From IMG/VR virus record IMGVR_UViG_3300046387_001332: a stretch of 64,000 bases of DNA, one strand, 5' to 3'. The position numbers were made by a program, and so were the translations under genes. Positions 13,383 through 60,986 of this stretch are shown in pieces. The notes under the pieces are model-generated. The model did no database searches, was not told where the DNA came from, and worked only from the letters and a program-made list of their open reading frames with translations. Each line of letters opens with the position of its first letter. Position 1 is the stretch's first letter. This DNA comes from a virus.

Positions 13383-13784
13383 ATGATAAGTAGGAGTATA
13401 GCCAAACTTCTTGGAAAAAAACAATATAAGTCTGAAATTTTAATCGTAAAAGACAATTTTACTGCTACCTTTTCAAGTAATTCTTTGTTGGAATCCTTGA
13501 AGTGGACAATTCACGGAATCTATGAAGCATCTGGATTTGATCATCTTTCTTTTGACGAAGATATACTAGAAAAGGCAAGTAAAGGAATAGGTGTGTTTGG
13601 TAAAATCAGAGAATTTAAAATATTTAGTGTATCAACTTCGTCTGTTACTTTATTTGATTACACAAGACCAAAAAATGAAGATATTTTATTTATGAATAAT
13701 AAAATGATTTATATACCTGATAAAATTCTTAAAAATTTACGAGAACAGGATGCAAAACTTAGTGAATTAGATTTACTTAAATAA
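13383..13784 (+). CDS. hypothetical protein
   Basis: 133-aa ORF preceded by ATATTTAT. Confidence 0.65.
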   Translation: MISRSIAKLLGKKQYKSEILIVKDNFTATFSSNSLLESLKWTIHGIYEASGFDHLSFDEDILEKASKGIGVFGKIREFKIFSVSTSSVTLFDYTRPKNEDILFMNNKMIYIPDKILKNLREQDAKLSELDLLK

Positions 13785-39514: not shown

Positions 39515-39589
39515 GCATCGGTGGCGGAATGGTGACGCAAGGGACTGCAAATCCCTACCATGCAGGTTCGAATCCTGTCCGATGCTCCA
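39515..39589 (+). tRNA. trnC: tRNA-Cys(GCA)
   Basis: GCATCGG/CCGATGC acceptor, AGGGA-CTGCAAA-TCCCT arm, GTTCGAATC, U73, CCA. Confidence 0.95.
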
Positions 39590-39602
39590 TAATCACTTTA
39601 TT

Positions 39603-39678
39603 GCCACCTTAGCTCAGCTGGTAGAGCACCTGATTTGTAATCAGGTTGTCGTCGGTTCGATCCCGACAGGTGGCTCCA
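39603..39678 (+). tRNA. trnT: tRNA-Thr(TGT)
   Basis: GCCACCT/AGGTGGC acceptor, CCTGA-TTTGTAA-TCAGG arm, CCA. Confidence 0.95.
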
Positions 39679-39683
39679 TTTTT

Positions 39684-39760
39684 GTCCACATCGTCTAGTC
39701 AGGTCAGGACACCGGGTTTTCATCCCGGCAACCGGAGTTCGAATCTCCGTGTGGATGCCA
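39684..39760 (+). tRNA. trnE: tRNA-Glu(TTC)
   Basis: GTCCACA/TGTGGAT acceptor, CCGGG-TTTTCAT-CCCGG arm, CCA. Confidence 0.95.
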
Positions 39761-39767
39761 TTTTAAA

Positions 39768-39858
39768 GGAGAGATGGCTGAGTGGTTTAAGGCGACGGTT
39801 TGCTAAACCGTTGAAGGAGTATATCCTTCCGCAGGTTCGAATCCTGTTCTCTCCGCCA
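39768..39858 (+). tRNA. trnS: tRNA-Ser(GCT)
   Basis: GGAGAGA/TCTCTCC acceptor, ACGGT-TTGCTAA-ACCGT arm, long variable arm, G73, CCA. Confidence 0.95.
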
Positions 39859-39905
39859 TTTTTTTTATATAAGTATATATGTATATAAATACATTGTAAT
39901 ACATT

Positions 39906-39981
<76 letters not shown>

Positions 39982-41842: not shown

Positions 41843-43399
41843 ATGGAGTCACACAAATGCACAAAAAAAGAATGTAAATATCCTATAAGTTGCGAACACA
41901 ACGATTTGTGCATGGAGAATGAAATGCAAAAAAGTGTTTCTTCAAAGAAAATCAAAAAAACCTCAACTCAAAAAGTTGGGGTTATTTTGTGTCATGGTTT
42001 TTTATCAAAGCACGAACAAATGGTCCCTCTTAGCAATTTCATTTACGAAAATTTTAATTGGGAAACTCATCTTGTTGAGTTAAGTGGTCACGGATACGAT
42101 GCTGATAATATTACCAAGGTAACTTGGAATGATTGGGTTGATGATGTGAAAAACAAGTACAACAAAGTTTCCAAAGAATGTGATACAATTTACTTTATTG
42201 GATTTTCTCTTGGTGGTTGTGTTGGTGCTTATGTATCTACTTTAAAAAGTGTAAGATTTTCTGGAATGGTGTTAATCAATTGTCCATTTGGTGTTAAGAA
42301 TGTATTTAATAAACTTTTACCAGGTGTTATGATTTACAATAAAATTTGTAAGAAACTCAATCTTCAAAAAATAATGCTTGAGTGTATTTCTAATGATAGT
42401 GAAATGCCAGAGTTAAACCAACCATTAATTGATTTGTCCGCAACAAATGAACTTCGTAAAATGTCTAACGTTTCTAAAACTATATTAGATAGAATATTAT
42501 GTCCTGTGTTTCAAATACAAGAATACAACGATCCAACTGTTTTTTATAGTAGTGGTGTTCGTGCATTTAAGAAGATTGCATCATCCTATAAGAAATTATT
42601 TACCACAAAATTAAATACACATCTTACGATTTACGACAAAGGATTAGAGTGTAGTGTGTTTTGTAAAATAAAACAATTTCTGACGGAAATGGAGAAAAAT
42701 AAATTTATTAATATTGCTCATCGTGGAGCAAGTGGTACTTGTACAGAAAATACACTTTCTGCATTTGAAAAAGCAATTGAGTTTAATTGTGATATGATTG
42801 AATTTGATGTTCAGCATATTAATCACAACTTCTGCGTGTTTCATGATTATACGGCAGAAAGAATGTTTGGGTTAGATAAAAAGATGAGTGATTTGTCATC
42901 GGATGAATTTGATAAACTTATTTATGCTAATTGTGAACGCATACCCACTTTACAACAAGCACTTGATTGTATAAATGGTAGGTGTGGTGTGAATATTGAA
43001 GTTAAAGATAGTAGCATTGCAACTAATATTGTGTCAGTTGTAAGAGATTATCAAAAAAAGAAACAATGGCAGAATGTTGATATTGTATTGAGTTCTTTTA
43101 GTTGTGCAACCGTCAATTTAATTAGAAGAACCGGTGATGATATCAAAGTATCCCAATTATTCCACGAAGGTAACGTCACACTACAAGACATAAAGAATTT
43201 TAGAAAAGACTACTTTGAAAAAAATATATATTCTGTAAATTTATATATAGAAGATATTACACAACCCATTGTTGAGTATTGTAATGAAAATAACATGAAA
43301 ATATATGTATATACCGTAAATGAACTTCGTGCTATAAGATATTTGCGTGAATTGGGTGTGGATGGTGTATTTACAGATTATCCCGAAAGAATACAATAA
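41843..43399 (+). CDS. alpha/beta-hydrolase (carboxylesterase/lipase) fused to glycerophosphodiester phosphodiesterase
   Basis: HGF, GFSLGG, DPTV, H; then IAHRGASG..ENT..AF, EFDV, FHD, NIEVK, YTVN, GVDGVFTDYP. Confidence 0.85.
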   Translation: MESHKCTKKECKYPISCEHNDLCMENEMQKSVSSKKIKKTSTQKVGVILCHGFLSKHEQMVPLSNFIYENFNWETHLVELSGHGYDADNITKVTWNDWVDDVKNKYNKVSKECDTIYFIGFSLGGCVGAYVSTLKSVRFSGMVLINCPFGVKNVFNKLLPGVMIYNKICKKLNLQKIMLECISNDSEMPELNQPLIDLSATNELRKMSNVSKTILDRILCPVFQIQEYNDPTVFYSSGVRAFKKIASSYKKLFTTKLNTHLTIYDKGLECSVFCKIKQFLTEMEKNKFINIAHRGASGTCTENTLSAFEKAIEFNCDMIEFDVQHINHNFCVFHDYTAERMFGLDKKMSDLSSDEFDKLIYANCERIPTLQQALDCINGRCGVNIEVKDSSIATNIVSVVRDYQKKKQWQNVDIVLSSFSCATVNLIRRTGDDIKVSQLFHEGNVTLQDIKNFRKDYFEKNIYSVNLYIEDITQPIVEYCNENNMKIYVYTVNELRAIRYLRELGVDGVFTDYPERIQ

Positions 43400-43425: not shown

Positions 43426-45054
43426 GTGGATATTGTAGAACATTATTTGAATAAGTCTTTGATTACATCTATTGAGTATGAAGATGTTTTGTGTGAACTT
43501 GCTTTACACGATTTGTTTAAACGTGACAACAAGCAAAGGTTCATTGACAAAGTTGATAGCAACGAAGTTCTTGATGATAAAAATAATCCTCTTAAAATAA
43601 AAAGTGGTACTACTGCTTTGTGGAAAGATATGAAGAAGCAACTTTTATCAGCAACAGACAAAGATGGAATTGCCGATTGGGGTGGTCGTGGTGACACTAA
43701 AATAAAACAACTATTTGGTGTTCCTATTAGTAAAATAGGTAAATCACAAAATGATATGAGTGGTGGTGCGAGTAGTGGTAATCCAAGTGGAGAAGATTGG
43801 GAGGCAATGATTGCTATTGGTCTTGCTACTATTGAAAAGAAAGACCCATCAAAAGAAGTTCCCGATGAGTGGTCACGAATAGAAAGAAAGGGGTTTTGGG
43901 ATAGTGAATTTAATCGTGACATTGCAGAAAAGATTGCAAGTGCATTTAAGAAAAACGGATATGCACCCATTTCACAAACTGGTAGTGGAAAGGGTGGTGC
44001 GGGGGTATCAAGTGAATGGGGAGAGATATTTAAAGAATACGGAAGTGGTAGTATGAACAAAACTCCAAAGACTGATATCAAGGGTGGTTCAAAGAAAATT
44101 TCATTAAAGAAAGCAGGTGGTTCTCAAGCAATGAGTGCCAAGCAAGCAGAAGCAGCTTCTACATTCGGAGCAGCTGTTAGTATGTATGGTAAAAATTATC
44201 CGAGTAGTGTAAATAAAATCTTAGATTCATTTAAAAGTTCAATTCTTGATTTATCTGAAAGTGGTTATCGTGGTAGTATATCTGCTCTTGAAAAAGACAT
44301 CAAAGCAAGTGAAGGTGATCCAAAGAAAATGAAGAAACTTAAACCCGTGGTTGATAATTTAAAGCAAGCAAGAGATGATGGTAAGTTTATTACATCTGAA
44401 ATGAATCGTTTGTTTTTAAGTGATTCAAAATTCAAAGACTTATTTGTATTTGAGGCAGCTACCGGTTCTGTTAAGTTTGGAGATTCATCGGAAAGTCGTG
44501 CTGATACTATGGTGGAAATTGATACTGATAGTGGTAAAATTACATCACAATACAAAATGAATTCTCCAAGTGATATCTCTTCGTTGGCAAGTCAATACAA
44601 GTTTTATTTGTCATTCAAAACAAGTGGTAATAGCACTCCTTATATGGCACTCCGAGGAAATATGGAACAAGACCCAAAGAAGGTTACTGCGTGGATGAAG
44701 AAGCAGGTTGTAGAAAATAAAAACTTTTCAACGATATGTCCAACATTTTCTACTATTATTCAAGAAGGTTTTAAACAAGACGATTTTGGAAAAAGATTAT
44801 TAACCGAATCTAGTTATCAAAATCTCAATGAATGGCAATTACTTAAAAAAGTTCGTGACGGAATAACATCTGTTAGCAACAAAGTAAAGGACCGTTTTGT
44901 TAAAATATGGAATTGGATTTCTGAACGAGTTTCTGTTGCGTTTAATTGGTTAAAGAAACAAGGAGCAAAAGCACTTGTTTATCTTCAAAAGTTTTTTGGA
45001 GTGAAACTTGACAAATGTGGAATAAATGGAAAAATAGAACTTTTCTCTGCTTAA
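43426..45054 (+). CDS. hypothetical protein with possible restriction-endonuclease-like core
   Basis: GEDWE...KTPKTDI....ISLKK pattern; ATATTTAT 4 nt upstream of GTG. Confidence 0.6.
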   Translation: MDIVEHYLNKSLITSIEYEDVLCELALHDLFKRDNKQRFIDKVDSNEVLDDKNNPLKIKSGTTALWKDMKKQLLSATDKDGIADWGGRGDTKIKQLFGVPISKIGKSQNDMSGGASSGNPSGEDWEAMIAIGLATIEKKDPSKEVPDEWSRIERKGFWDSEFNRDIAEKIASAFKKNGYAPISQTGSGKGGAGVSSEWGEIFKEYGSGSMNKTPKTDIKGGSKKISLKKAGGSQAMSAKQAEAASTFGAAVSMYGKNYPSSVNKILDSFKSSILDLSESGYRGSISALEKDIKASEGDPKKMKKLKPVVDNLKQARDDGKFITSEMNRLFLSDSKFKDLFVFEAATGSVKFGDSSESRADTMVEIDTDSGKITSQYKMNSPSDISSLASQYKFYLSFKTSGNSTPYMALRGNMEQDPKKVTAWMKKQVVENKNFSTICPTFSTIIQEGFKQDDFGKRLLTESSYQNLNEWQLLKKVRDGITSVSNKVKDRFVKIWNWISERVSVAFNWLKKQGAKALVYLQKFFGVKLDKCGINGKIELFSA

Positions 45055-46644
45055 TTACTTCTTGTAAAACACAAAGATAGGTTCGTACTTTTGCAACTCT
45101 CCGTTTATCTTGCAACAATTCTTAACCGTTTCTGCTTTAACACCACGCATTGTTGTCATAAGCATTTTAAGAGTTTCTACATACTCAAGTCCGTATTCCG
45201 CAAGAATATCACGACTATCTTTTTCTAATGGCATAAATCCATCTCCGTCTGCAATGTCTGCAATATTCCAAAGTAAGTATCTATCGTTCTTCAAATACTC
45301 GGCAGCCGTTTTCAAAGTAGGACGAAGAAAGTTGTCTCTCCAATCTTCGTACTCTGGAAACTTTTTGAAACTCTGAGATTCATCTGCTGAATATTGCTCA
45401 CGATTAAAATAAGGTGGACTCGTAAAAACCAAATCAAGTTTACCTTTGTATTTTTGGAAACTTGGATTCTTGTGAATTTCTTCACTTCCGTTCTGATAAA
45501 CATCATAAGTGTTACGATGACCAAAGAACGGATTACCTCCGTTTGTTTTATCATTAAAGAAGTCAGCAAGATATTCATAACGACTTTGATTTAGTTCGTC
45601 TATATAATTGTCTGTATTTGGATCAGTTCCTATATAATGAATTTGACGATCATGTACTGACATAGCACCTAGAATACGACCACCCCAACCAGAACTTGGG
45701 TCATATATATGGAGATTGCTTTTATCTTGAATGTGGTCTGTGTATTTCTGATATATATATTTTGCAGTCAACGGAGGAAAGTTTACTGCTGGTTGACTAA
45801 GACCCAACTTAAATGCTTCCATTGCTGACGGAAAGATTCTTGAGTTCTTGTTATAGTAACGGATGCTGAATTTGAATTGTACTTCCTTTTCATCTTCAAT
45901 AACGACATCATTTATATTTTCTATATCGTCACCGAAGTTTGCAGTTCTTTCTAAATTTCTAATGTTGTTTATTTCAAGCAAACCTTCTTTGTGTAATTTT
46001 CTTATTTGCTTTGCCGTAAGCATCAAACTATTTTGTTCATACGAATCAAAGTTTTTTTCTGTGAACAACTCAATAATCCAAAAGTCGTTATCTGGATGAA
46101 GATGCTTTTCTTTGACGAAGTTGCGAATCCACTCTTCTCCGTTTTGTGTTGGACACGGAACATCGAAGTCATTCTTGCCGATAGTTTTTCCGTGAGCATA
46201 AAACGAATCCCTACGAACAGTTCGTCTCATACAAGTATGAAAACTTTCTCGTTTCTCTGGATTAGCAAAACAATCATATACACTCCAAGATGTATGCTTA
46301 CTAGAACCTATTTTGGTTTTAAGCATCGTTGGAAAAAACTGATCAACTACGGTTGCGAACTTGTTAAAGTTTTTGATGATAGTATCAGTTCCATCCATTT
46401 CATCTGTATGCTGAAACTTGTAAACATCGTAACCAGGTAGCTTATTAAAGTTTGCTATAATATCTTTTTCGTTTTTACCTGTTCTTGGTGGAAGACCTTC
46501 ATTGTCCCAAGTGTCCACGATATAAGTTCTAAGTTCATCAATCCACTGTTCCAATTCTGTACCATTCTTTTGCAATAGTTCGTGGAATGTAATATTAACC
46601 TTACACTCTGTTAAATTATTCTTTTCGTAAAAGTATTTTTTCAT
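45055..46644 (-). CDS. DNA amino-methyltransferase-like protein (SPPY type) with long N-terminal region
   Basis: YDPSSGWGGRILG motif I, GTDPN, FTSPPYF; start at ATGA overlap with upstream stop. Confidence 0.8.
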   Translation of the reverse strand: MKKYFYEKNNLTECKVNITFHELLQKNGTELEQWIDELRTYIVDTWDNEGLPPRTGKNEKDIIANFNKLPGYDVYKFQHTDEMDGTDTIIKNFNKFATVVDQFFPTMLKTKIGSSKHTSWSVYDCFANPEKRESFHTCMRRTVRRDSFYAHGKTIGKNDFDVPCPTQNGEEWIRNFVKEKHLHPDNDFWIIELFTEKNFDSYEQNSLMLTAKQIRKLHKEGLLEINNIRNLERTANFGDDIENINDVVIEDEKEVQFKFSIRYYNKNSRIFPSAMEAFKLGLSQPAVNFPPLTAKYIYQKYTDHIQDKSNLHIYDPSSGWGGRILGAMSVHDRQIHYIGTDPNTDNYIDELNQSRYEYLADFFNDKTNGGNPFFGHRNTYDVYQNGSEEIHKNPSFQKYKGKLDLVFTSPPYFNREQYSADESQSFKKFPEYEDWRDNFLRPTLKTAAEYLKNDRYLLWNIADIADGDGFMPLEKDSRDILAEYGLEYVETLKMLMTTMRGVKAETVKNCCKINGELQKYEPIFVFYKK

Positions 46645-47498
46645 TGTCTCCAAAAGTGTGATGCACAAGCACCACCAAGATTATAGAATAGTACATCTCC
46701 GTCTAATTTGCAACCATTTTCTGTTAACCAACTCCACGCCTTTTTGTCCCAATTACCATTACAAGGAAACGGAGTTTCACACCAATCCATATCATCAAAA
46801 AAGTCGTGAGGTGTTTCGTGTATTTGAGTTTGATTACGATCATACACATTCCACTTCTTTAACATATTTGCAATAGATGACTTACTTGCAGTTGTGATCA
46901 AGTGAGCATACTTTTTATCTTTTTCTGACTGAACTCCAAATGTTTCAAAGTTCATAAATCCTTGTAGAATACCAGAAGGTGTAACACCACTTCCTGCATT
47001 TATCACCAAATGCTTAAAGTTTTTTTTCTGCATTATGCTTTGGGTGCGTTCTCTAAAATAAGTTATATACTCGGAGTGATTAAATGCGTAAGGCATCATT
47101 TGGTATTTTTCTTTTTCTGCAAGAATTCCTACACTACTTATTACGATGCTGAGAATATTTGGTTTCATCGGAACAAGTTCTGCTCCTAAACTTTCTATTT
47201 TTTCAAGTGCTTTTTTTGGATAGTCTTTGGTGTCTGGATAAGCAATCTTGATCTTAAACCCCAACTCTTTTCCGATATATGCTAATGCCCATCCACTATA
47301 ACTTACACGAACTGATAAATGTATAATGGGTTTGTCTTTAGATAACTCACCACTTTCAAGAACTCTGCGAATACCTTCCATTTTTGCCCACGGAGGTAAA
47401 TCCATATTTCCGTTTAGTAAATCGTCACGTTTTACATAAACTTTTTTTTCTCCACACAAATGTTCTTCAAGTGGAGTATCAAAATTAAAGGAGAGCAT
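46641..47498 (-). CDS. PLP-dependent enzyme, fold type II (ACC deaminase/D-Cys desulfhydrase-like)
   Basis: VYVKRDDL..K, NAGSGVT phosphate loop, FYNLGG. Confidence 0.8.
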   Translation of the reverse strand: MLSFNFDTPLEEHLCGEKKVYVKRDDLLNGNMDLPPWAKMEGIRRVLESGELSKDKPIIHLSVRVSYSGWALAYIGKELGFKIKIAYPDTKDYPKKALEKIESLGAELVPMKPNILSIVISSVGILAEKEKYQMMPYAFNHSEYITYFRERTQSIMQKKNFKHLVINAGSGVTPSGILQGFMNFETFGVQSEKDKKYAHLITTASKSSIANMLKKWNVYDRNQTQIHETPHDFFDDMDWCETPFPCNGNWDKKAWSWLTENGCKLDGDVLFYNLGGACASHFWRQ

Positions 47499-48690
47499 CT
47501 AAATGTTTTTGTTCACATTCAATATCCATTATTACGTGGAAACGATAATTCTCTGAATTGTTTACAACCCAATGAGGTTTTCTTTTGTCCATATAATAAT
47601 ATTCTCCCGTCTTTAAACGAAAGTCTTCTGTTTCACCATCAAGTCCAACTTGGGTGAATATACACTCTTCGTCAACTTGAATAGGAAAATGAATTCTTAA
47701 CGAACGACCAAGTTTTGGTCCATTCTTTGTTTGGTAATCCCAACTATCGTGACCAATATCGGTGTGTCTTTGAATCACTCCATTTTTTGGTTCTACTCTT
47801 GTGATAACCAACCAAGTACATTTTTCTACTGATGTAATTTCATTTACAATCTTTGCAAGTTTAGGAAGTTTCTCAAGAATTGTATAATCAACTTCACTGT
47901 TAGGGTTGATCGGCACAACTTCAATTGTGTACCAAGTTTTTTCGGGTCCTCCGTAGTTTCCATTAATTCCATCGTAACTCCAAGGATTAACTGCTTCTTT
48001 GTAGTCTTTAATTTCTTGAACAAGTTCTGCACATTCTTTTTTGTTGATAGAACTCAACTTCATTTTCTGAATCTTAATGTCTTCATACTTTGAAACACCC
48101 GGTTGTTTCAACTCACCACTATACCAAATACCACGAACCTCAGAACCAACCGCGGTTACTTTACTGCTTAACCAAGTTGCGTTAATTGCATTACACAAAT
48201 CTTTATCTTGTTGAAGTTCCATATTAACATCTGTGAAAAACAAATCACATCTTGTATCAAACAAATCGTTTTCTAGTTCTCGTTTGCTTTCAATGTCTTT
48301 AATTAAATCATCCATATACCCATCTGCATATGCGAATCTTGTAATTTGCAAATCACCTGTCTTAATATGAGCAACTACATCTTCGGCAACATCTTTGATT
48401 CCACGACCAGATTTTGCTTCCGCACAAATATAACTCCAAACAATCTCATCGTTTTCTTTCTTGAAAAACAATCTACCTTTTTGATCTGCTTCCCAAAGGT
48501 TCTTCCAGTTTACTTTCTTGAACGGATCGAGGTTAGGTTCTTTGCAAGCAATTGGTTGATTTTTCCATTGTGGCGGAACATCATATTGCTGATAGAACTT
48601 TGCGTGTTCTCTGAATGAATCTTTTACTTCATCTGAAATGTCATCTTTGACTTTGACCTTTTTTGTTTTCTTTTCTTTTACTGAAACCAT
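47485..48690 (-). CDS. 2OG-Fe(II) dioxygenase (Asp/Asn beta-hydroxylase-like) with uncharacterised N-terminal domain
   Basis: HTD...RIHFPI...PHWVVN...RFHVIMD: HxD/H triad plus 2OG-binding Arg. Confidence 0.8.
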
Positions 48691-49487
48691 TTGTTTTCTT
48701 GCCTTTCTAAAATTGCATTATTCACTTTATTCTCTAAACAATTCTCTATAATTTTTTTTAAATTTTCGTGATCGTTTTTTTCTCCAAGGAAATTCCACGA
48801 TGTGTGATTGTAATACTTGACTGAATCTGTTTCAAGAAGTTCTTCGCGTTTAGTCGTACCAAGTGTATCAATGTGAGCAGACTTAATATTACCACCTAAA
48901 AGTGCAGAAAGCAATCCTTCGTTGTCGTGACATTCTGCTCTTGAAATAGAAACAAAGTTTATCCAGCAACATTCTTCAAATAGTTTTTCGTTGAACATAT
49001 TTTTGGTGGAATCATTCAACGGAACGGCTGCAACTATGTTTCTTGTATCCGCATTTGCCATTACTTCTCTGATTAACTTCATATCAGTTTTTGAATCTAC
49101 AACTACAAATGGATTATCACATATTTCTTGAACTTTCTTGGATATTGGTCCATTACCAAATATGATAACACGACCTTCTTCTAATTTGTCTTTAATCCAA
49201 TAAGCACATCCGTTTGTATTAGGACTTGTTGTCACTACACCAACATTGTGCTTTTTACACAACTTTAGATTTACCGAATCTACTCCATGACCTCTGTGAA
49301 CTACCCACTCAAGGTTAGGATACCGATCAAGTGTAGTTTTTCCTACTTTGCTAAATTTGGTTGATATGACCTTAATTTCTTTCGCAGGAATTCCATCTGC
49401 TTTTTGCATTGCACCGAGAATGTGTGCATTTGGAATAAACTTCTCTATATCAACAAGATCGGATTTATCTTTTATTAAGGTATTCAT
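48678..49487 (-). CDS. D-2-hydroxyacid dehydrogenase-like protein (divergent)
   Basis: GHGVDSVNL...[26 protein letters not shown]. Confidence 0.7.
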
Positions 49488-49498
49488 TTTCGTATACT

Positions 49499-49527
49499 AT
49501 ACTAAACGAATACGCACCAAATATCAA
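49499..49527 (-). promoter_or_regulatory. sigma70-type promoter
   Basis: TTGATA-N17-TAGTAT upstream of 49487. Confidence 0.5.
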
Positions 49528-49541
49528 GTATATAATATAAT

Positions 49542-51188
49542 TTATGCTAACTCGGTAACTTTGATTCTCGCAGATACATGACCAAGACTTCTATTTAGAT
49601 ATTCCATTGGAACTTTGTTTTCTACAAACAACTCGTTAAAGTATTGATCAATAGTATCTTGTTCTTTTTTAAGATAATCTGTATGGCATCCTTGTTGAAA
49701 TGTTTTTTTGGGTCTCCAGAGCAACTCATCGGAAATCTCTCCTTCAAATGCTTTTCGCAAAACATATTTCATTATGTTTCCTTTGCCATCTGCTTCATCT
49801 CTGTATCTGGTTGGAATTCTCAAACCAAAATCAATGACTTCTTTATTAAGAAACGGAGTTCTTAATTCTACCTTACCACCATACATCATTGCTTTGTTTG
49901 TTCTAATAAGATTGTTCTTGTGAAGATTGTTTATGAGGTTAACTCGTTTTTGATGCCAGGCAAGTGGATCAGGCCAGCAAAATCTTTTAACATCTCCATA
50001 ACTAGCAAATATTTCATCTGCTCCTTCTCCACCAAATACCACTTTGTATCCTTTGTCTCGGATTTCCCAAGATAAAAATAATTGAGCAACTGCTGGAGAT
50101 ACTTGTGTCCATTTGTGGGTTTCTGATGCCCATATGCTTTCTTTTAAATTATTCTGAATATCTTCTTTACTTACATTAACTTCGTGCAATCTAACACCCA
50201 ATTCTTTTGATGCTATTTTAGCATAATACAAATCATCTTTCAAAGTTTGCTTACGATTAGATGTCACATTCACAACAAATGCTTCAATGTTTGGGTTTTT
50301 CTTTTTAAGTAGGTATGTGATTATGGTGCTGTCTATACCACCGCTTAAAATTGTACAAATTGGAGTATCACTTATTAGTTCATCATCAACTGCTTTTTCC
50401 AACCGTTTTCTAAATTCAGATGCGTAGTAATCAATTCCTTTATCTTCTTTCTCAAATAATTTTAAGTCTGTTTCTGATCGTGTATATAAAGTTGGATTCT
50501 CTGGATTAAACTCTGGTTTGAAATCGTTCCATCTTTTAATCTCACAATTTGTTACTCCGATTAAATTTTCGGAAACCGTTACAATTGTTCCAGGTTCTAC
50601 TACTTTTATTTTTTCTTCTTCACCCCTTGGTGCTTTGCGATTTCTATCTACATTAAAAAACTTCAGTTCTTTGTTTGCTGATTGTAATCCTTTAACTTCA
50701 CTTGAAAAAACAATCTTTTCGTTTTCAAATGCATAATATAACGGAAGTCTTCCGATAAAGTCTCTTCCTAATGTTAACTGATTTCGTTCTACATCATAAA
50801 AAGCAAAACAAAACATTCCATCAAGATTTTTCATTGCTTCTAAAATATTATCACGATTATCAATCAAATAATAAAGTAACAACTCTGAATCACTTCGTTC
50901 AGTCTTGAAATTGTATTTCTTTCTGAGTTTGTTGTTAAACTTTCTAAAAAATGGTTTCCACATTTCTCCGTTGAAGGCCAGCACAAATTTTTCATCTTCA
51001 GAAATAAGTGGTTGATTTGCTGACTCTGATAAATCTTGTATAGACAAACGATTGTGACTCATATAAAAATCATTCTTCTCAAAATGAAATATAACATTGC
51101 CATCTGTTCCCCGATGCATAATTGAAGCAAGACCGTTTTTTACGTCTTGTATATTGTTGAAAGAGTTACCCCCTAATATTCCACACAT
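49542..51188 (-). CDS. asnB: asparagine synthetase B-like glutamine amidotransferase
   Basis: MCGI (Ntn Cys), HRG.D, H.RLSI.DL, FNGE, LSGGIDS PP-loop, GEGADEIF, ELRTPFL. Confidence 0.9.
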   Translation of the reverse strand: MCGILGGNSFNNIQDVKNGLASIMHRGTDGNVIFHFEKNDFYMSHNRLSIQDLSESANQPLISEDEKFVLAFNGEMWKPFFRKFNNKLRKKYNFKTERSDSELLLYYLIDNRDNILEAMKNLDGMFCFAFYDVERNQLTLGRDFIGRLPLYYAFENEKIVFSSEVKGLQSANKELKFFNVDRNRKAPRGEEEKIKVVEPGTIVTVSENLIGVTNCEIKRWNDFKPEFNPENPTLYTRSETDLKLFEKEDKGIDYYASEFRKRLEKAVDDELISDTPICTILSGGIDSTIITYLLKKKNPNIEAFVVNVTSNRKQTLKDDLYYAKIASKELGVRLHEVNVSKEDIQNNLKESIWASETHKWTQVSPAVAQLFLSWEIRDKGYKVVFGGEGADEIFASYGDVKRFCWPDPLAWHQKRVNLINNLHKNNLIRTNKAMMYGGKVELRTPFLNKEVIDFGLRIPTRYRDEADGKGNIMKYVLRKAFEGEISDELLWRPKKTFQQGCHTDYLKKEQDTIDQYFNELFVENKVPMEYLNRSLGHVSARIKVTELA

Positions 51189-51308: not shown

Positions 51309-52211
51309 TTACTTGCTGGTAATCTTCGCAATATAATCTTCAAGTTTTATTTTTGCTTGCCAACCAAGGTGTTGGTAAGTTAAAGAGGGAATTGCTTTTC
51401 CGTAAAATCGTTCACCACGACGTTCTGGAATCATAACGTGTTTATGATTGAACATTTTAGCAACATCAATTATTTTGTGTGGAATACCAGTGCCAAGAGG
51501 ATATTCTCCTTGTTGTCCTTTTTCGGCAGCTAATATAACACCACTTACGATGTCGTTGATATGAGTAAAATCTCTTGATTGCTCTCCTGGTTCTACGACA
51601 GTGAGTGGTTCTCCTTTAGAATATTGCTCTTCAAATATACCAATGACGGTTGCGTAATCACCTGTTCTTACTTGTCCGGGACCATAAGCATTATAGAAGT
51701 ATGTGATTTCAAATTTAAGATCAAACCATTCTGCGTAATTGTTGATAAGTTCAACCATTTTTGCTTTCATCCAAGCATACGGAGAAAGGTTTTCGTCTTT
51801 TCCATCGTTACCAAACTTGCTTGAACTTGCAGAATAAATTAACTTTGCTTTTTTTGCGACACAATAATCAAGAACCATTTTAGTTCCTTGCATATTAAAG
51901 TCCCAACAATTATCAAAAGCATCAAAACTTGTTACGATTCTCGAAAACTCTCCGAAATGAAAAACAACATCTGGTTCAAATGCATCTGCAATATCCATCT
52001 TGGTATTGCTTGCATCAAATTTTTTCGGAATCAAAGTTTGAGTATCCTTATTAAGATAAGTTACTTTTTTACTTTTAATATGATTGCTTTCAAATCCACT
52101 ACTATAATTGTCAATGCTTACAATCTGCACATTCTTGTACTTTCTTAAAAGTTTTTTAATAAGTGCAGTTCCTACAAAACCCGCACCACCTGTTATTAGC
52201 ACCTTTTCCAT
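51309..52211 (-). CDS. NAD-dependent epimerase/dehydratase (SDR)
   Basis: TGGAGFVG, SSS, YAWMK (YxxxK), YGPG, RDFTH. Confidence 0.9.
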   Translation of the reverse strand: MEKVLITGGAGFVGTALIKKLLRKYKNVQIVSIDNYSSGFESNHIKSKKVTYLNKDTQTLIPKKFDASNTKMDIADAFEPDVVFHFGEFSRIVTSFDAFDNCWDFNMQGTKMVLDYCVAKKAKLIYSASSSKFGNDGKDENLSPYAWMKAKMVELINNYAEWFDLKFEITYFYNAYGPGQVRTGDYATVIGIFEEQYSKGEPLTVVEPGEQSRDFTHINDIVSGVILAAEKGQQGEYPLGTGIPHKIIDVAKMFNHKHVMIPERRGERFYGKAIPSLTYQHLGWQAKIKLEDYIAKITSK

Positions 52212-52619
52212 TTACTTTTTTTCTTTAAGTCCGGTTAAATCACTTGAACTTCTTATTTTATCTCCAAGTCCATCAATCATTTCTATTCCGTGTTTCTTAC
52301 AAACAACACTTTCTGGAACTTCACCCACACTTCTATCTCCACCGTTGGCAAAGATGTCGGGTTTAATTGCATCGAGAGAATCACACACACTTTTGTCTTC
52401 GTCAATACTGAGAAATGCTTCATCAACAATTCCAATTGCTTCTACGATTTTTACTCGGTCTACTTCGTCCATAAATGGTTTGCCTTTTTTAAGAACACAT
52501 TGATTGTTGTTGTTTACGATAACAACAAGACGATCACCAAGTTCTTTTGCTAATTCAAGATATTCCAAGTGTCCTACATGAATTGGGTCAAAGTATCCAC
52601 TAACTGCTACTGTTTTCAT
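52212..52619 (-). CDS. cytidylyltransferase-like protein
   Basis: SGYFDPIHVGH, KKGKPFM, FANGGDR, SSS; start at ATGA overlap. Confidence 0.85.
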   Translation of the reverse strand: MKTVAVSGYFDPIHVGHLEYLELAKELGDRLVVIVNNNNQCVLKKGKPFMDEVDRVKIVEAIGIVDEAFLSIDEDKSVCDSLDAIKPDIFANGGDRSVGEVPESVVCKKHGIEMIDGLGDKIRSSSDLTGLKEKK

Positions 52620-53035
52620 TGTGGTTGATCCATATCTTCGGTCCACTCATAGGGTGGATAGTTTACATCTGCTATGTGTTTTTCTGGACGATCATAATCG
52701 TCTTGAACTCTGACGATATCATCCTCACCAAAATAAGTTCCTGTTTGAACTTCAATTAAAATCATCATTTCATCATCACTTGGGTTTGCCATACGATGCT
52801 TTGCACCGAGGGGAATCAAAACAGTTTCACCTGGTTTGTAATCGTCTGTGACATCATCTAAGGTTATTCTTGCAACACCACTAACAACTGTCCATGCTTC
52901 TTGTCGCTTGTGGTGATACTGATAACTAAGTCTTTGTCCTGGTTTTACATAAATTCGTTTTACTTTGCAGTATTCTGCATCTAAAAGGATTTCATAATTT
53001 CCCCAAGGTCTAATGCTTTCGTCTTGTTCACTCAT
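52616..53035 (-). CDS. mannose-6-phosphate isomerase type II C-terminal cupin
   Basis: RPWG, PGQRLS.QYH..R.E.W, HR..N, EVQ.G.YFGEDDIVR..DDY. Confidence 0.9.
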   Translation of the reverse strand: MSEQDESIRPWGNYEILLDAEYCKVKRIYVKPGQRLSYQYHHKRQEAWTVVSGVARITLDDVTDDYKPGETVLIPLGAKHRMANPSDDEMMILIEVQTGTYFGEDDIVRVQDDYDRPEKHIADVNYPPYEWTEDMDQPQ

Positions 53036-53041
53036 ATTTTT

Positions 53042-53167
53042 TCATCCCCATCTGTCTGCTAAATCTTGCTCAGATATTTCAGACTTCTTGTATTGTTTAT
53101 TTAAAATTGGTTTAGTCAAAACCAAAAAACTCAATTTGTGTTTCTCAATAAATATTTTACTGCTCAT
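53042..53167 (-). CDS. small hypothetical protein (41 aa)
   Basis: ORF filling gap on operon strand, ATATATATT upstream; read manually. Confidence 0.35.
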   Translation of the reverse strand: MSSKIFIEKHKLSFLVLTKPILNKQYKKSEISEQDLADRWG

Positions 53168-53186
53168 ACTAATATATATTCTGCAT

Positions 53187-53807
53187 TTATATATTTGATG
53201 GTCCACACATATAATTAAATTTTTTAATAGAACGTCTATGACGTTGTGCGACTATTGCACCTGAGTGGTAATTGTAGTATTTCCAATAATCTTCATTTTT
53301 CTTTTTAAATGGAAACTTTCCTATGTTTTTTAAACTTTTATATTCTAAATTTAGTTTTTTACACAAAGATTTGTATTCATCATCTAAATTATCAAACTTC
53401 ATGTAGTGATCCATATTTGCTTCACCTTCCTTATTAAAATAGTATGGTTGATTAAATTGAGTGTAATTTCCAATCCAACGAGCAAATTGCTCCTTAAACT
53501 CATATCCATCGAATTTCATTTTAAGCAGTTTGTCTACATTTTCTCTGTGGTTCTCGCCGACCAAACCACCATCTTGCCACCAAAAATAAGAAACCATTCT
53601 GTCCCAAGGATTTCTTGTGATTGTTATTTTGTAGTAATTGTTGAATATTTTTTTACCTACAATATCATATGCATCACGTGGATTTCTATGAGTTGCATCT
53701 ATTAAATCTTCTTCACCACATTGCTCAATTAGATTATACTCAACACTATTACCACCCACTTTCCAAGGTTTGAAAAATATAAACTTATGTTTGTGAGAGA
53801 CAATCAT
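53187..53807 (-). CDS. sulfotransferase family 2 protein
   Basis: SHKHKFIF..K.GG.S, RNPWDRMVS. Confidence 0.8.
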   Translation of the reverse strand: MIVSHKHKFIFFKPWKVGGNSVEYNLIEQCGEEDLIDATHRNPRDAYDIVGKKIFNNYYKITITRNPWDRMVSYFWWQDGGLVGENHRENVDKLLKMKFDGYEFKEQFARWIGNYTQFNQPYYFNKEGEANMDHYMKFDNLDDEYKSLCKKLNLEYKSLKNIGKFPFKKKNEDYWKYYNYHSGAIVAQRHRRSIKKFNYMCGPSNI

Positions 53808-53820
53808 CTTATTAATTAGT

Positions 53821-54390
53821 TTAAAAATTATGTAAAATTTTTTGAAGTGTTTCTGTTAGAACACTATAATAATCAGTAATTTTTTTGTTGGTAAATTGAG
53901 GGGCAAGTTTTAAGTTTCCAGTCTCATAAAACCACTCTTTAGTTTTTTGGTTTGTAAAAATCTCAAACCTATCTTTAAGTTCTGTTGATAAAAAATCTTC
54001 TTTAATTGATGCAATGTCGAAGTCAATAACAGATAGTATTCCATTTGTGTTTAGACATATGTTTTTGCCACTAAGTACCATATCAAGGTGTTGGATGTTG
54101 CTTTTTTTTAGATTCGTAACAATGCATTTTATTTGTTCATTTTTGTTGGAAATTTTGATTTTTTCTCTTATTTTATCAAGTGAATGACCACAATTTGTTA
54201 ATTTGAGTCTATATTTCGTGTCTAGAGAACTTACAATTTTTGGAAAGTGATAAGTGTTCTGACCACATACACACTTAAAGTTTTTTTCTAACAATAATAA
54301 TATTTCTTTTTCAAGTTGATATGCTTGTTTTTGTGATAAACCTCGTAAAATAGTTTTTTCCTCTGATTTTGTAATTTTATATATTTCCAT
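53821..54390 (-). CDS. protein-kinase-like fold protein
   Basis: HLD....KN, IDFD motifs; start placed at MEIYK. Confidence 0.55.
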   Translation of the reverse strand: MEIYKITKSEEKTILRGLSQKQAYQLEKEILLLLEKNFKCVCGQNTYHFPKIVSSLDTKYRLKLTNCGHSLDKIREKIKISNKNEQIKCIVTNLKKSNIQHLDMVLSGKNICLNTNGILSVIDFDIASIKEDFLSTELKDRFEIFTNQKTKEWFYETGNLKLAPQFTNKKITDYYSVLTETLQKILHNF

Positions 54391-55333
54391 ATATCTCTTC
54401 AAATTTTTCAATAAATGTATGTAACTCTGTTTTTGGTAATTCATTTACTCCGGCTGCTTTTTCACGACCACCACCTGTTGGAAATTGTAGTGCAAGTTTA
54501 CTTGCACCAAATGGGTTTGATTTTGGGGAACGGATACTAATGCGATAGTTATCATCGTTAACTAATGTTAATATTGCAAATGCTTTATCAGGATTATCTG
54601 TGGTTTGCTGATTGCTATAAATTCCGGAATATCTAATAGATGCCTTTGAGTCTGGAAGAAGAATAACTTTACCAGTTTCTGTATCATGTAATATATCCGA
54701 TGAACTTAATTCACTTTCATCACTTTTCATTTGGGTAAATATTTTATTATATACTTCCGACTTCTCTCTGTATTGAAATGGCGATTCGTAGTCTTTTATA
54801 TCAAGATAAACATCTTTGGGATGAACTGTTAAATCAGATTCTTCGTTTCCATATCCATTGTAGTTTAATGTTTCCCCAATTTCTTTTAACTCTAACATAT
54901 GCTCTTTGGTAAAATTTGGATTTAGTTTATCCGCCTGTTCGTGTAAGTTGTCTCCGTATGCTCCACATATTGTCCACGGACGGTATAATCCATCAACATA
55001 TGTGTCCACCAAAATGTTTGTGCAACAATTTGGGTCGGCATCTACAAAAATTTGAAAATTTTCACCAAGTTCTGTTTCACCGGGTTCGTGGTGATCAAAC
55101 CAACGAATTGTGTTTCCATTATTTAGTATTGTATCTACATAATCTTTATTTGATAACAATGATATATCAAATACGGTAAGTTTTGAATTTTTTATGTCAG
55201 TACAATGTCTTAATAATTTTACATCTCGTTTGACACCTGTAAAAACTTCCGAGTCTTTGGGGTAATGCATTCTATATTGATGTAGACTGATTATACCATC
55301 TGCATCTCCATTAAAAAAATCGTAATAACTCAT
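54377..55333 (-). CDS. DHH-family phosphoesterase
   Basis: NGDADG, DIS, FDHH, GGGR..AAG. Confidence 0.85.
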   Translation of the reverse strand: MSYYDFFNGDADGIISLHQYRMHYPKDSEVFTGVKRDVKLLRHCTDIKNSKLTVFDISLLSNKDYVDTILNNGNTIRWFDHHEPGETELGENFQIFVDADPNCCTNILVDTYVDGLYRPWTICGAYGDNLHEQADKLNPNFTKEHMLELKEIGETLNYNGYGNEESDLTVHPKDVYLDIKDYESPFQYREKSEVYNKIFTQMKSDESELSSSDILHDTETGKVILLPDSKASIRYSGIYSNQQTTDNPDKAFAILTLVNDDNYRISIRSPKSNPFGASKLALQFPTGGGREKAAGVNELPKTELHTFIEKFEEIYGNI

Positions 55334-56211
55334 TTGCCTGTTTTCTTTTTGGTAGGAATTAAAGTTTCAACTTCAGCAGAAACTGCTCTACCCTTGTCGT
55401 TCATCCAATCTTTTTCTGGACGATCAAGTTCTTCGTTTCGTTTTATTACAGCATCTAATATTGGGGTTGGAATCATGTTTTTATCTGCAAATTTTGCTAA
55501 AGCATTTGTATCTTTTGGAAAGCAAGTGCCACCAAAACCACGATGGCCATCATGTCCAGGTACTTTTGTGTGACCACTTCCGATTCTTTTATCTTGAGTT
55601 GCTATACAACGAACATTTTCATAATCAATGTTAAGTTCTGTGCAAATACTTTCAAGTTCGTTGAAAAATCCAACTTTAACACTAAGAAAAACATTTTTAA
55701 GATATTTTATTATTTCTGCTTCACTTGGTTTGCACTGTATTACTTCTTTGTTTATAACACTTCCATCTCCGTTGTTATACGCCAGTTCAAACATACGTTT
55801 CATTTTTTCGTACAAAAACGGATCAGTAGAACCAAGTATCCATTGGTCACATTTTTTGAAATCATCTTTCCAGTTTTTTTCTGTGAGAAACTCTGGCATA
55901 AAGTTTACGTCAAGTTCTTCACTTGTTCCAGGAGGAACGGTAGAACGCAGTACAATATATTTAGAATCATCTATTTCTTGTATTTCCTCACAAACAGCAC
56001 GAACAATATTTAAGTTGGCACTTCCGTCTGAGTTCATGGGGGTGGGTACTGCCACAAATATAATTTCCGACTCCTCTACAAACGTTTCTATGTCTAATGT
56101 ATTGGGTTCTCTTTTTTCGGGTACAACGTCCCACACCAATACTTCAACATAAGGTCTTAATAATGTCATAGCATGACCAACAAATCCGTTACCAACAACT
56201 CCAATTTTCAT
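55330..56211 (-). CDS. ugd: UDP-glucose/GDP-mannose 6-dehydrogenase (short form)
   Basis: GNGFVG, AVPTP, RSTVPPG, PEFL, K..N, GFGGTCFPKD. Confidence 0.85.
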   Translation of the reverse strand: MKIGVVGNGFVGHAMTLLRPYVEVLVWDVVPEKREPNTLDIETFVEESEIIFVAVPTPMNSDGSANLNIVRAVCEEIQEIDDSKYIVLRSTVPPGTSEELDVNFMPEFLTEKNWKDDFKKCDQWILGSTDPFLYEKMKRMFELAYNNGDGSVINKEVIQCKPSEAEIIKYLKNVFLSVKVGFFNELESICTELNIDYENVRCIATQDKRIGSGHTKVPGHDGHRGFGGTCFPKDTNALAKFADKNMIPTPILDAVIKRNEELDRPEKDWMNDKGRAVSAEVETLIPTKKKTGK

Positions 56212-56272
56212 ATTACTTCTCACTTTAGTGTAATATAACCTTTGTTATAATAAGTATTTACTATTATCAGTA

Positions 56273-57082
56273 TTACTTGAATTTTCTTTTTATTCTATCA
56301 ATCGCATTTTTGTCAGAAATATTTGTAGAATTTCCGAGAGATGATCCAAAAATATTCAAAACTTCGTTTTTGGAAAACTTACGATCATCTTGAGATGATT
56401 TAATTGTGTGCTTTGCATCTTGTACACCTCGTATTATATTTGATGTCATTTGACTGCTCGTAATTCCCAACCAAGTTATTAGTCCTGGTATTCTACTTAC
56501 CAACCATGCGATTAATTGTGTAATAATTGGTAGTAATGCAGGACCACCTATTATTAAAACTGCAATTGCACCAACAATACCAAATGTTCCTGTTAACCAA
56601 CCCCACATAGAGTCAATGAATCCGTCTTTTTGTTCTTTTGCTTTTAATTCTCCCAAACTAATAAGTTTTTCTTCTGTATCTTTTAAGTCATGTCCAAGCA
56701 TTTGCTTTCTTCTTGCAAGTGTTATAACATCCTCATCTCTGTCCAATAAATTTTTTACTGCAATTTCATTATCATTAATTACATTATCTATATGTATTTT
56801 ATCCCCTGGTTGTGGCAGACCAACTATTTCTTGTGCTTTTCGTGCTAAATCAAGAGCAACTAAATCTTCTTTTGATTTATTCTCTGACAAGGATAGTGCA
56901 TCAACAGTACCTGATATATATGCACTTGTATGTCTATTTAGTTCTGATTCTTTTCTTGAAATCTCTCCTGCAATTTCTTGCCTGTCTTGTTTTAGTCCCC
57001 AATTTGGTAAAGTGAAACATCCTGAAAAAAAGGTACAACATAAAGTAAGTAGCAAGAAAGTGGTAACTTTTTTTGTCTTCAT
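56273..57082 (-). CDS. lipoprotein with C-terminal membrane segment (spanin-like topology)
   Basis: Signal peptide with FSG-C lipobox, helical middle, hydrophobic segment ~aa 160-207. Confidence 0.6.
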   Translation of the reverse strand: MKTKKVTTFLLLTLCCTFFSGCFTLPNWGLKQDRQEIAGEISRKESELNRHTSAYISGTVDALSLSENKSKEDLVALDLARKAQEIVGLPQPGDKIHIDNVINDNEIAVKNLLDRDEDVITLARRKQMLGHDLKDTEEKLISLGELKAKEQKDGFIDSMWGWLTGTFGIVGAIAVLIIGGPALLPIITQLIAWLVSRIPGLITWLGITSSQMTSNIIRGVQDAKHTIKSSQDDRKFSKNEVLNIFGSSLGNSTNISDKNAIDRIKRKFK

Positions 57083-57084
57083 TA

Positions 57085-57969
57085 TTATATATATGGAGTT
57101 TTTTTAATTTTTACTTTTAGTTTTTCTATCTCAGATACAAAACATTGCTCACTTTGCTTTTTTAAATAAGTTGTTTCTTTTAAAAAATGAACATTAAAGT
57201 TTTCTTCTTTTATTGACTCGCATACAAGAGTATCTGTCATTACATATTGTTGTATTCGTGTTCCTGATTTTTTTAAATGTTTGCAACCTTCCATTATGAA
57301 GGTATCGTCTACTCCATAACCAACGAATTTACTTGGGATGTTTATGTATTTGGCTAATTTTGCTGAAATGGTTGTAAACCACCCACCACCCCATTTAAAG
57401 GTTGGAATGGGTTTTAAATTATATTCATGTTTAAAATTTGATATTTCGGTTTCAATGTTTGCATTTTTGTAATAATTGAGTTCTGTTTTCTTGTATTGAT
57501 CAGCAACTATATAGTCCCAAGTTTTATCCCATAATCTAAGTGTTGTAGAAGTAATTACAAAATCTTTTAAAAACTTGCTAACTTTATTTGTAGTAAGCTC
57601 TATTGATTTTAAAATATTAAGTGTAAAGTGTATATCGCAATCAAGAAAAGTTATGTAGTTATTGTCATCTGTTATTGATAATATTTTTCTTCTAAAGTCA
57701 TTTACTCCAAGTATTTTTGCGTCTGTATCAAGAAGTTGTACATCAATTTTTGATTCAATTGAAACTGCTAAATACAAGTCTATTAAATTACTCAGAGTAG
57801 GGTGATTGTATGATTCCTTGCATATAATACTCGGGTTGCTATTTAGATAACTAATTATTTTGAAATTATCAGGTTTATCAACCTGTTTAATGCTTTCATT
57901 GAGTTGTGTTATTATGCGTTGATAATCATAAACCTCATGTGGAAATAAATGTATAGCAATATAATTCAT
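57085..57969 (-). CDS. GT-A fold glycosyltransferase
   Basis: FLDCD (DxD), GYGVDD. Confidence 0.65.
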   Translation of the reverse strand: MNYIAIHLFPHEVYDYQRIITQLNESIKQVDKPDNFKIISYLNSNPSIICKESYNHPTLSNLIDLYLAVSIESKIDVQLLDTDAKILGVNDFRRKILSITDDNNYITFLDCDIHFTLNILKSIELTTNKVSKFLKDFVITSTTLRLWDKTWDYIVADQYKKTELNYYKNANIETEISNFKHEYNLKPIPTFKWGGGWFTTISAKLAKYINIPSKFVGYGVDDTFIMEGCKHLKKSGTRIQQYVMTDTLVCESIKEENFNVHFLKETTYLKKQSEQCFVSEIEKLKVKIKKTPYI

Positions 57970-60969: not shown

Positions 60970-60986
60970 GTGGCAAATGTATTATG

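Follow-up and report, generated by a model that had tools for sequence, protein, structure and literature searches.

Organization of the five-gene locus

The stretch of DNA analysed here (the window) comprises the opening 64 kb of the 130.6-kb IMG/VR virus record IMGVR_UViG_3300046387_001332 (G000, 66% complete), and the subject of the analysis is a group of five genes at 45055-51188, G1 to G5, for which a first-pass annotation had proposed a DNA hypermodification pathway. The record represents an uncultured marine T4-like phage of low GC content (~33%) in which rIIA/rIIB and a family-B DNA polymerase are present; the polymerase is 47% identical to its homologue in Microcystis phage Mel-JY01, the nearest cultured relative. 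No nucleotide similarity to cultured phages was found, and identical copies of the genes are contained in TARA Oceans and other seawater assemblies.

All five genes lie on the minus strand, in the order G1 (49542-51188, 548 aa), G2 (48678-49487, 269 aa), G3 (47485-48690, 401 aa), G4 (46641-47498, 285 aa) and G5 (45055-46644, 529 aa). A gap of 54 nt separates G1 from G2, and the following genes overlap by 13 nt (G2/G3), 14 nt (G3/G4) and 4 nt (G4/G5), so that the common orientation and the overlaps first reported agree with our check of the open reading frames (ORFs). The last overlap is given by the conserved ATG at 46644 as the start of G5; a TTG at 46668 is likewise open. Scans for promoters and terminators returned matches at no more than chance level, and the term operon thus rests on the overlaps and the common orientation.

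The family assignments originally made for G1, G2 and G3 were borne out by profile searches. G1 is an AsnB-type glutamine-dependent amidotransferase that matches Asn_synthase and GATase_6/7 and passes the cut-off of TIGR01536 (278.9 versus 267.1 bits), with both the N-terminal nucleophile (Cys2) and the PP-loop (SGGIDS at residue 282) intact. G2 is a short, divergent D-2-hydroxyacid dehydrogenase (2HADH): 2-Hacid_dh_C (PF02826, 37.9 bits) and 2-Hacid_dh (PF00389, 32.8 bits) both score above cut-off, in a protein of only 269 aa with a degenerate NAD loop (GNGPIS versus GxGxxG). G3 is a two-domain protein with a C-terminal 2-oxoglutarate (2OG)-Fe(II) cupin of the Asp/Asn-beta-hydroxylase type; the match to Asp_Arg_Hydrox (PF05118, 35.5 bits versus a cut-off of 22.6) is confined to residues 269-391, where the HxD...H iron ligands (H309-T-D311 and distal histidines) are present. 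Residues 1-265 of G3 have no family match, an ESM Atlas feature search with this N-terminal domain gave nothing usable, and the homologues of G3 are only unnamed marine metagenome proteins.

G4 is a homologue of a phage DNA-adduct decarboxylase

G4, a fold-type-II pyridoxal 5'-phosphate (PLP) enzyme, passes the PALP cut-off narrowly (35.9 versus 35 bits) and matches phrog_7093 over its full length (E 8.7e-24). In tblastn searches of cultured phages it matched only M6/YuA-like Pseudomonas, Bordetella, Sphaerotilus and Stenotrophomonas phages, and in BLASTP it aligns end to end with gp52 of Pseudomonas phage M6 (26% identity, E 2e-20), with K39 of G4 opposite K36, the proposed PLP lysine of gp52. 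K39 is invariant across 22 members of the G4 family (alignment A2). The match between G4 and gp52 scores 75 bits, whereas the G4-family profile reaches at most 36 bits against solved cellular fold-II enzymes; these weak cellular matches are to serine dehydratase-like proteins, a 1-aminocyclopropane-1-carboxylate deaminase homologue and cysteine synthases. Purified gp52 decarboxylates C-alpha-glycinylthymidine in DNA to 5-(2-aminoethyl)uridine (PMC8989533). Judged from these alignments, the homology of G4 to the M6 DNA-adduct decarboxylase is genuine, and the connection first drawn between a fold-II PLP enzyme and phage adduct tailoring now has a full-length homology with an aligned lysine behind it.

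G5 joins a methylase-fold domain to a virus-only domain

G5 had been described as a DNA amino-methyltransferase-like protein of the SPPY type. Its motif I (DPSSGWGGR) and motif IV (SPPY, in FTSPPYF) are both present, and its score against N6_N4_Mtase (PF01555) lies just under the cut-off (24.3 versus 26.7 bits), covering profile positions 2-59 only; it also weakly matches type II methylase models. Among 55 homologues D315, G319 and S409 are invariant, and P410, P411 and Y412 occur in at least 90%. In the AlphaFold2 model (predicted local distance difference test score, pLDDT, 93; predicted template-modelling score, pTM, 0.91) the C-terminal domain adopts a predicted class-I S-adenosylmethionine (SAM)-dependent fold whose nearest neighbours are the tRNA m2G methyltransferases Trm11, TrmN and Trm14. 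These (D/N)PPY enzymes give Z scores of 15-16, with a root-mean-square deviation of ~3 over 180 residues, as against ~13 for unrelated class-I enzymes.

The N-terminal domain (residues 1-290), modelled alone with a pLDDT of 88, has no relative in the PDB (none at E<=1e-3 in Foldseek; best Z of 4.1 VIA-wide), and the fold searches revealed no ADDT-like (amino acid:DNA transferase), THUMP-like or known target-recognition fold and no RNA-binding domain. A shape search of the Atlas found this domain in viral proteins only, some of them stand-alone, and an ESM Atlas feature search returned only unnamed viral clusters, below 0.9. A PDB sequence search with G5 gave no match. The predicted complex of G5 with G4 scored 0.00, which is evidence neither for nor against an interaction. 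An exhaustive search placed 3696 representative clusters in the G5 family at E<=1e-3 and 135 at E<=1e-30.

The window encodes a paralogue of the G5 catalytic domain, P2 (35760-36977, minus strand, 405 aa), which is 35% identical to residues 296-506 of G5, carries the motifs DFSAGWGDR and SPPY, and shares 42-50% identity with the gene that immediately precedes DNA polymerase in three relatives (L056, L059 and L081). P2 is a core gene beside DNA polymerase in relatives and possibly a second transferase of the system. With two further methylase-fold genes, G5 and P2 bring the number to four within 18 kb, around DNA polymerase: 28619-30148 (minus strand) encodes a phrog_67 DNA methylase with a ~250-aa insert, and 30072-30968 (minus strand) a 298-aa true N6_N4_Mtase (74.7 bits).

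The resemblance of the catalytic domain to Trm11, TrmN and Trm14 suggests an alternative in which the target is RNA, for instance phage or host tRNA, and the product an aminocarboxypropyl-type modification like that of wybutosine or acp3U, perhaps evading anticodon nucleases. The phage carries five tRNA genes (39515-39981, plus strand: Cys-GCA, Thr-TGT, Glu-TTC, Ser-GCT and Ala-TGC), and all aminocarboxypropyl transfers known to us take place on RNA or protein, which counts for such a target. On the other hand, the N-terminal domain of G5 yielded no THUMP or other RNA-binding domain, the characterised relative of G4 acts on DNA, relatives of the phage place G5 between DNA polymerase, clamp and clamp loader, and ParB_N proteins accompany both a fused form of G5 and some PLP-G5 modules, as described below. 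We consider an RNA target very unlikely.

G5 is a core gene beside an exchangeable cassette

To place the five genes in a wider context, 62 IMG/VR loci encoding G5 relatives were scanned by tblastn and with family hidden Markov models. The families co-occur in other phages, in shuffled orders and also without sugar genes: a PLP enzyme, often with AsnB, 2HADH and either 2OG or radical SAM enzymes, lies near G5 orthologues in at least four gene orders, two of which lack sugar genes. The five genes do not, however, form the fixed unit that was first supposed. G5 is a core gene and G1-G4 are one of at least two alternative cassettes in a slot beside it; the idea of one invariant operon was dropped, as G5 persists without G1-G4 in close relatives.

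Within the clade of the window, G5 is always present and 88-97% identical, and the slot lies between G5 and the epimerase of the adjacent sugar genes. Five loci of the clade have G1-G4 in this slot; six have a 428-aa PF05118 oxygenase, a 156-aa protein and a divergent 275-aa PLP-family protein; and in two (L011 and L012) the slot is empty. A protein search of the relatives' records, which are 58-84% complete, found no G1 or G4-type gene elsewhere in them. A PLP gene lies beside G5 in 11 of the 13 loci of this clade, and does so in 14 of the 15 freshwater loci with enough flanking sequence.

In the freshwater relatives G5 is ~45% identical and the gene order is PLP, dUTPase-like, SAM-lyase-like, two small genes, P2, DNA polymerase, a 239-aa protein and G5, often with a third paralogue between G5 and the clamp loader; the 239-aa protein is probably the sliding clamp, to go by its position and size. 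Some of these relatives have a thymidylate-synthase-like gene and AsnB directly upstream of PLP, so that in L056 and L081 the series thymidylate-synthase-like, AsnB, PLP, then P2, DNA polymerase, clamp and G5 stands inside the replication genes. The minimal cluster, of the L059 type, holds only PLP and methylase-fold paralogues, and in L019 the order is DNA polymerase, 2HADH, PLP, one other gene and G5.

Many freshwater relatives also encode MetK close to the PLP/G5 module, a supply of SAM that counts in favour of the pathway proposed below. These MetK genes and the SAM-lyase-like genes would suit an auxiliary small-molecule metabolism, such as SAM/methionine salvage or amino-acid conversion, with no macromolecular target, and fold-II PLP enzymes, 2HADH and AsnB all have small-molecule relatives. 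Against such a role stand the fusion of PLP and methylase-fold proteins, the latter with an SPPY motif of the nucleic-acid type, the virus-only distribution and the placement in replication modules, and we judge it highly improbable. As a separate observation, the replication module of L056 that holds PLP and the methylase-fold paralogues contains a SAM-lyase-family gene (PF23780, 4301-4930) and a complete MetK gene (13771-14940), so that an enzyme for destroying SAM is oddly coupled with one for making it; the 130-kb record of the window yielded neither gene.

Two marine lineages carry the cassette families next to virion genes and without sugar genes, in the orders G5-AsnB-methyltransferase-x-x-2HADH-2OG-PLP (L077 and L078) and G5-AsnB-x-2HADH-radical SAM-PLP (L079 and L080), x denoting other genes. 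Compared with the window, G5 is 44-50% identical in these lineages, AsnB 63-66% and 2HADH 54-56% (in L077 and L079), 2OG 67% and PLP 48-66%. By these comparisons the cassette moves as a unit, because in L077 its genes (54-67% identical) are far more alike than G5 (44%) or the virion genes (29-45%). The radical SAM enzyme that stands in the place of G3 in L079 has no similarity to the M6 gp53 isomerase, and no cultured-phage homologue of it was found.

The sugar genes next to the cassette form a 12-kb cluster (51309-63433, minus strand) of epimerase, cytidylyltransferase-like protein, mannose-6-phosphate-isomerase-type cupin, sulfotransferase, short nucleotide-sugar dehydrogenase, one family-2 glycosyltransferase (GT2) and two family-4 glycosyltransferases (GT4), both of the 'conflict-system' type; freshwater relatives keep the GT4-GT4-GT2 trio, with 31-35% identity, next to their replication genes. 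G1-G4 abut this cluster, and could belong to it as enzymes that equip a glycan with an acid substituent bearing amide and hydroxyl groups, for instance at a uronic acid from the UDP-sugar dehydrogenase, with G5 unrelated. AsnB-like amidotransferases and PF05118 hydroxylases do occur in polysaccharide and lipid A pathways. Yet the same four families adjoin G5 orthologues without sugar genes in L077-L080, relatives without G1, G2 and a G4-type PLP enzyme retain the sugar cluster with 80-97% identity, and the only characterised relative of G4 acts on DNA. The glycan-substituent pathway, which had been named from the start as an alternative, is weakened by the sugar-free arrangements and by the persistence of the sugar cluster without the cassette; we find it decidedly unlikely.

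At greater distance (28-35% identity of G5) a PLP gene beside G5 recurs in Flavobacteriaceae and Ignavibacteria/Kapaibacterium contigs. Three of the latter (L115, L117 and L118) have a G5-like gene followed by a thymidylate-synthase-like and a radical SAM gene, the last of the same family as the enzyme that replaces 2OG in L079 (259-323 bits), which is another permutation of the parts. About half of the examined full-length G5 relatives lack a PLP gene in the surrounding 8-10 kb, including those of a T4-like phage (after Rad50), of small elements and of cultured Devosia and Limnohabitans genomes. For the stand-alone homologues of L101 (Devosia epidermidihirudinis E84), L103 (Limnohabitans sp. 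Jir61), L088-L090, L098 and L110, no PLP gene was found in contig sequence up to 10 kb on either side; directly upstream of stand-alone homologues lies an ORF of ~350 aa without a known family, that of L098 and L110 being detectably similar to that of L089. Nor did the neighbourhood annotation of methylase-fold matches in Twort-like and Bacteroides DAC phages include a PLP gene. The proposed linkage is limited in that many of the more distant G5 relatives have no PLP partner.

Natural fusions of G5 and the PLP enzyme

The two families are also joined within single proteins. In P0245 and P0157 a G5 part is followed by a C-terminal PLP part, in P0180 an N-terminal PLP part precedes G5, and P0270 and a metagenome-assembled genome locus (L107) look like G5-PLP fusions, though they are truncated. 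In P0245 the PLP part shares 29% identity with G4 (E 2e-24), and it has the lysine motif and the PFPCN motif common to G4 and gp52. P0157 and P0180 reside in small integrase-bearing elements, in which no other candidate pathway enzyme is present. Two ParB_N proteins flank P0180, and ParB_N proteins also occur near the PLP-G5 modules of L111 and L119; phage DNA methylases and CmoX typically have ParB-domain proteins as neighbours (PMC12783734). Fusions of this kind fit the delivery, by the transferase, of an amino-acid-type group rather than a methyl group. A PLP enzyme needs a free alpha-amine, and a methyl group offers none.

The fusions also bear on the alternative that G5 is an ordinary DNA m6A or m4C methyltransferase. 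G1-G4 would then tailor a DNA adduct on a handle supplied by another enzyme, candidates being the N-terminal domain of G3 and a neighbouring gene product; or G5 would methylate an amide or amine made by G1-G4. The canonical motifs of G5 and its weak matches to N6_N4_Mtase and type II methylase models are as expected of such an enzyme, many G5 relatives have no PLP gene, and L011 and L012 keep G5 without the cassette. PrmC is, moreover, among the structural neighbours of G5, and NPPY-type enzymes such as PrmC methylate carboxamide nitrogen. What speaks against this alternative is that the G5-PLP fusions occur in small elements without another candidate transferase and that the minimal clusters of the L059 type have no known attaching enzyme; we regard it as unlikely.

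Initiating enzymes of known pathways

To our knowledge, the known routes to hypermodified phage DNA start from a hydroxymethyl-pyrimidine, a 7-deazapurine, a change in the precursor pool or (since 2025) carboxymethyl transfer from carboxy-SAM (Cx-SAM). Enzymes for such starts were sought in the 130-kb record, in which absences are provisional given its 66% completeness. The thymidylate-synthase fold (PF00303) gave no match at E<=0.1 in the record or in the relatives G001-G003 (66-84% complete), and among the phage relatives scanned a thymidylate-synthase-like gene occurs only in those of the L056/L081 type. No match at E<=1 was obtained in the record for the 5-hydroxymethyldeoxyuridine (5-hmdU) DNA kinase (PF18748; positive control, M6 gp54) or for the amino acid:DNA transferase (PF18724, aGPT-Pplase2; control M6 gp51, 159.6 bits). 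Likewise, no tRNA-guanine transglycosylase/DpdA (PF01702), no CmoA (TIGR00740), no C5 methylase (PF00145) and no MetK was found in it. The first-pass annotation had seen no hydroxymethylase, aGPT-Pplase or 7-deazaguanine genes in the window, and for PF00303, PF18724, PF18748 and PF01702 this now holds for all 130.6 kb.

A proposed pathway

Taken together, the gene set appears, from its sequence relationships, to consist of a conserved core and a swappable tailoring cassette, and we assign a probability of roughly 0.55 to the reading that it directs a phage DNA hypermodification in which G5 first attaches an amino-acid-type group from SAM, possibly aminocarboxypropyl, that is then tailored. The minimal modules, in which methylase-fold paralogues and PLP, or a fused protein alone, occur without another attaching enzyme, make delivery of such a group from SAM by the methylase-fold enzyme the most economical reading. 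The proposal of SAM-group transfer followed by tailoring is thus strengthened in outline by the linkage, the gp52 homology and the fusions; its substrate (DNA), transferred group, target atom and step order are those that we infer, with the steps taken from the usual chemistry of each family.

In this pathway, G5 would modify an exocyclic base nitrogen in phage DNA with a SAM-derived side chain that has an alpha-amino-acid end, and G4 would act on that end while it is attached to the DNA. The simplest candidate for the group is 3-amino-3-carboxypropyl; aminocarboxypropyl is the only amino-acid-type group that SAM offers. G3 would first hydroxylate the beta carbon, and G4 would then remove water and ammonia in the manner of a serine/threonine dehydratase to leave a 2-oxo acid, fold-II dehydratases being its nearest solved relatives; alternatively, G4 would decarboxylate, like gp52. 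G2 would reduce the 2-oxo acid to a 2-hydroxy acid, and G1 would turn the carboxylate into a carboxamide, giving a neutral hydroxy-amide side chain. Chemically, these steps would make up an ordinary sequence. An equivalent course would have the PLP enzyme decarboxylate SAM first and G5 transfer aminopropyl; spermidine synthases transfer aminopropyl from decarboxylated SAM. In its most specific form, which we offer tentatively as possible rather than probable, the G5 family would transfer the 3-amino-3-carboxypropyl group of SAM, and not methyl, to the exocyclic nitrogen of adenine or cytosine in DNA, and phages would diversify the product with plug-in cassettes: PLP alone would yield an aminopropyl base, and 2OG, PLP, 2HADH and AsnB together a hydroxy-carboxamide side chain.

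Several observations weigh against this proposal. The catalytic domain of G5 is structurally nearest to tRNA m2G and not to DNA methyltransferases, its motifs (DPxxGxG and SPPY) are those of ordinary amino-methyltransferases, and its invariant residues are identical in relatives with and without a PLP partner, so that no sequence sign of an altered G5 reaction is seen. The empty slot of L011 and L012, the absence of PLP from about half of the examined relatives, and the location of the cassette at the edge of the sugar cluster count on the same side. An AsnB step and a gp52-type decarboxylation cannot, furthermore, share one carboxylate, which means that at least one of the assumed activities must differ.

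Relation to known systems and significance

The closest precedents are the thymidine hypermodification pathways of Pseudomonas phage M6 and Salmonella phage ViI, which make 5-(2-aminoethyl)deoxyuridine (5-NedU) and 5-(2-aminoethoxy)methyldeoxyuridine (5-NeOmdU), respectively (Lee et al., PMC5889632, PMC8989533). They share with the present system a gp52/gp226-type PLP enzyme (here G4), combinatorial, swappable tailoring genes that include radical SAM and glutamine-amidotransferase-type enzymes, and a location near replication and nucleotide genes. The present system differs in that no dUMP hydroxymethylase, 5-hmdU DNA kinase or amino acid:DNA transferase was found in the 130-kb record, in having a methylase-fold SPPY protein as the constant partner, and in its 2HADH and Asp/Asn-hydroxylase-type 2OG enzyme, which lie outside the published pathways.

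A second precedent is Synechococcus phage S-B43, in which CmoA, CmoX and CmoY produce 5-carboxymethylcytosine and its glycine amide (Yang et al. 2025, PMC12783734). There, a DNA-methylase homologue uses Cx-SAM to attach carboxymethyl to DNA, which gives an ATP-dependent amide ligase its handle, and a cluster of AsnB-like ligases is predicted to use ammonia (PMC12783734). A methylase homologue that adds a non-methyl SAM-derived group (as proposed here), AsnB-like ligases and ParB-domain neighbours are features in common. Unlike that system, the record contains no detected CmoA or C5 (SPPC) methylase, G5 is of the SPPY amino-methyltransferase type, and a PLP enzyme acts as constant partner; such an enzyme needs the free alpha-amine that carboxymethyl lacks.

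The proposed logic of aminocarboxypropyl placement, hydroxylation and amidation also resembles that of two pathways whose targets are tRNA and elongation factor 2 rather than DNA. In wybutosine synthesis TYW2, of methylase fold, places a SAM-derived aminocarboxypropyl group and TYW5, a cupin/JmjC 2OG enzyme, hydroxylates it; diphthamide is made by Dph2 and Dph6, the latter a PP-loop ATPase that amidates. We know of no PLP step in either pathway. Finally, Mom of phage Mu, an acetyltransferase-fold enzyme, makes N6-carbamoylmethyl-adenine, which like one product proposed here is an adenine with an N6 side chain ending in a carboxamide; no homologue of Mom is found here, and its route has no SAM, PLP, 2OG or AsnB step.

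The present gene set is without the starting enzymes of the known routes and yet keeps a member of a proven DNA-adduct tailoring family, which gene neighbourhood and gene fusion link to a methylase-fold protein. If the proposal is right, it would be a new start for DNA hypermodification, with SAM as an amino-acid donor, and would introduce a new family of modified bases that bears on restriction evasion and on sequencing artefacts in marine and freshwater viromes, as well as new enzymes for amine, hydroxyl or amide handles on DNA; should the group be aminocarboxypropyl, the product would be the first aminocarboxypropyl DNA base. Our literature searches found no account of such a module, no aminocarboxypropyl or aminopropyl DNA base and no hypermodification by AsnB with a methylase. 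The G5 family is large and widespread, and has carriers among cultured Devosia and Limnohabitans. The window contributes a version of five genes that includes AsnB, 2HADH and 2OG, the three states of the slot upstream of an unvarying G5, and the evidence for movement of the cassette as a unit.

Other genes of the window

The gene on the other side of G5 (43426-45054, plus strand) encodes a 542-aa protein, its stop abutting that of G5, for which a nuclease role had first been suggested, and has no Pfam, PHROG or PADLOC match; the PADLOC scan likewise gave no match for the cassette proteins without a family. Its product is 31-42% identical in L004, L005, L012, L013 and L015, where G5 is 90-96% identical, and by this measure the gene is a hypervariable neighbour of G5. 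At lower coordinates of the window, 27200-28318 (minus strand) is an M29 aminopeptidase gene among the replication genes, and 41843-43399 (plus strand) encodes a protein that matches a PHROG tail-fibre family and in which an alpha/beta hydrolase is fused to a glycerophosphodiester phosphodiesterase.

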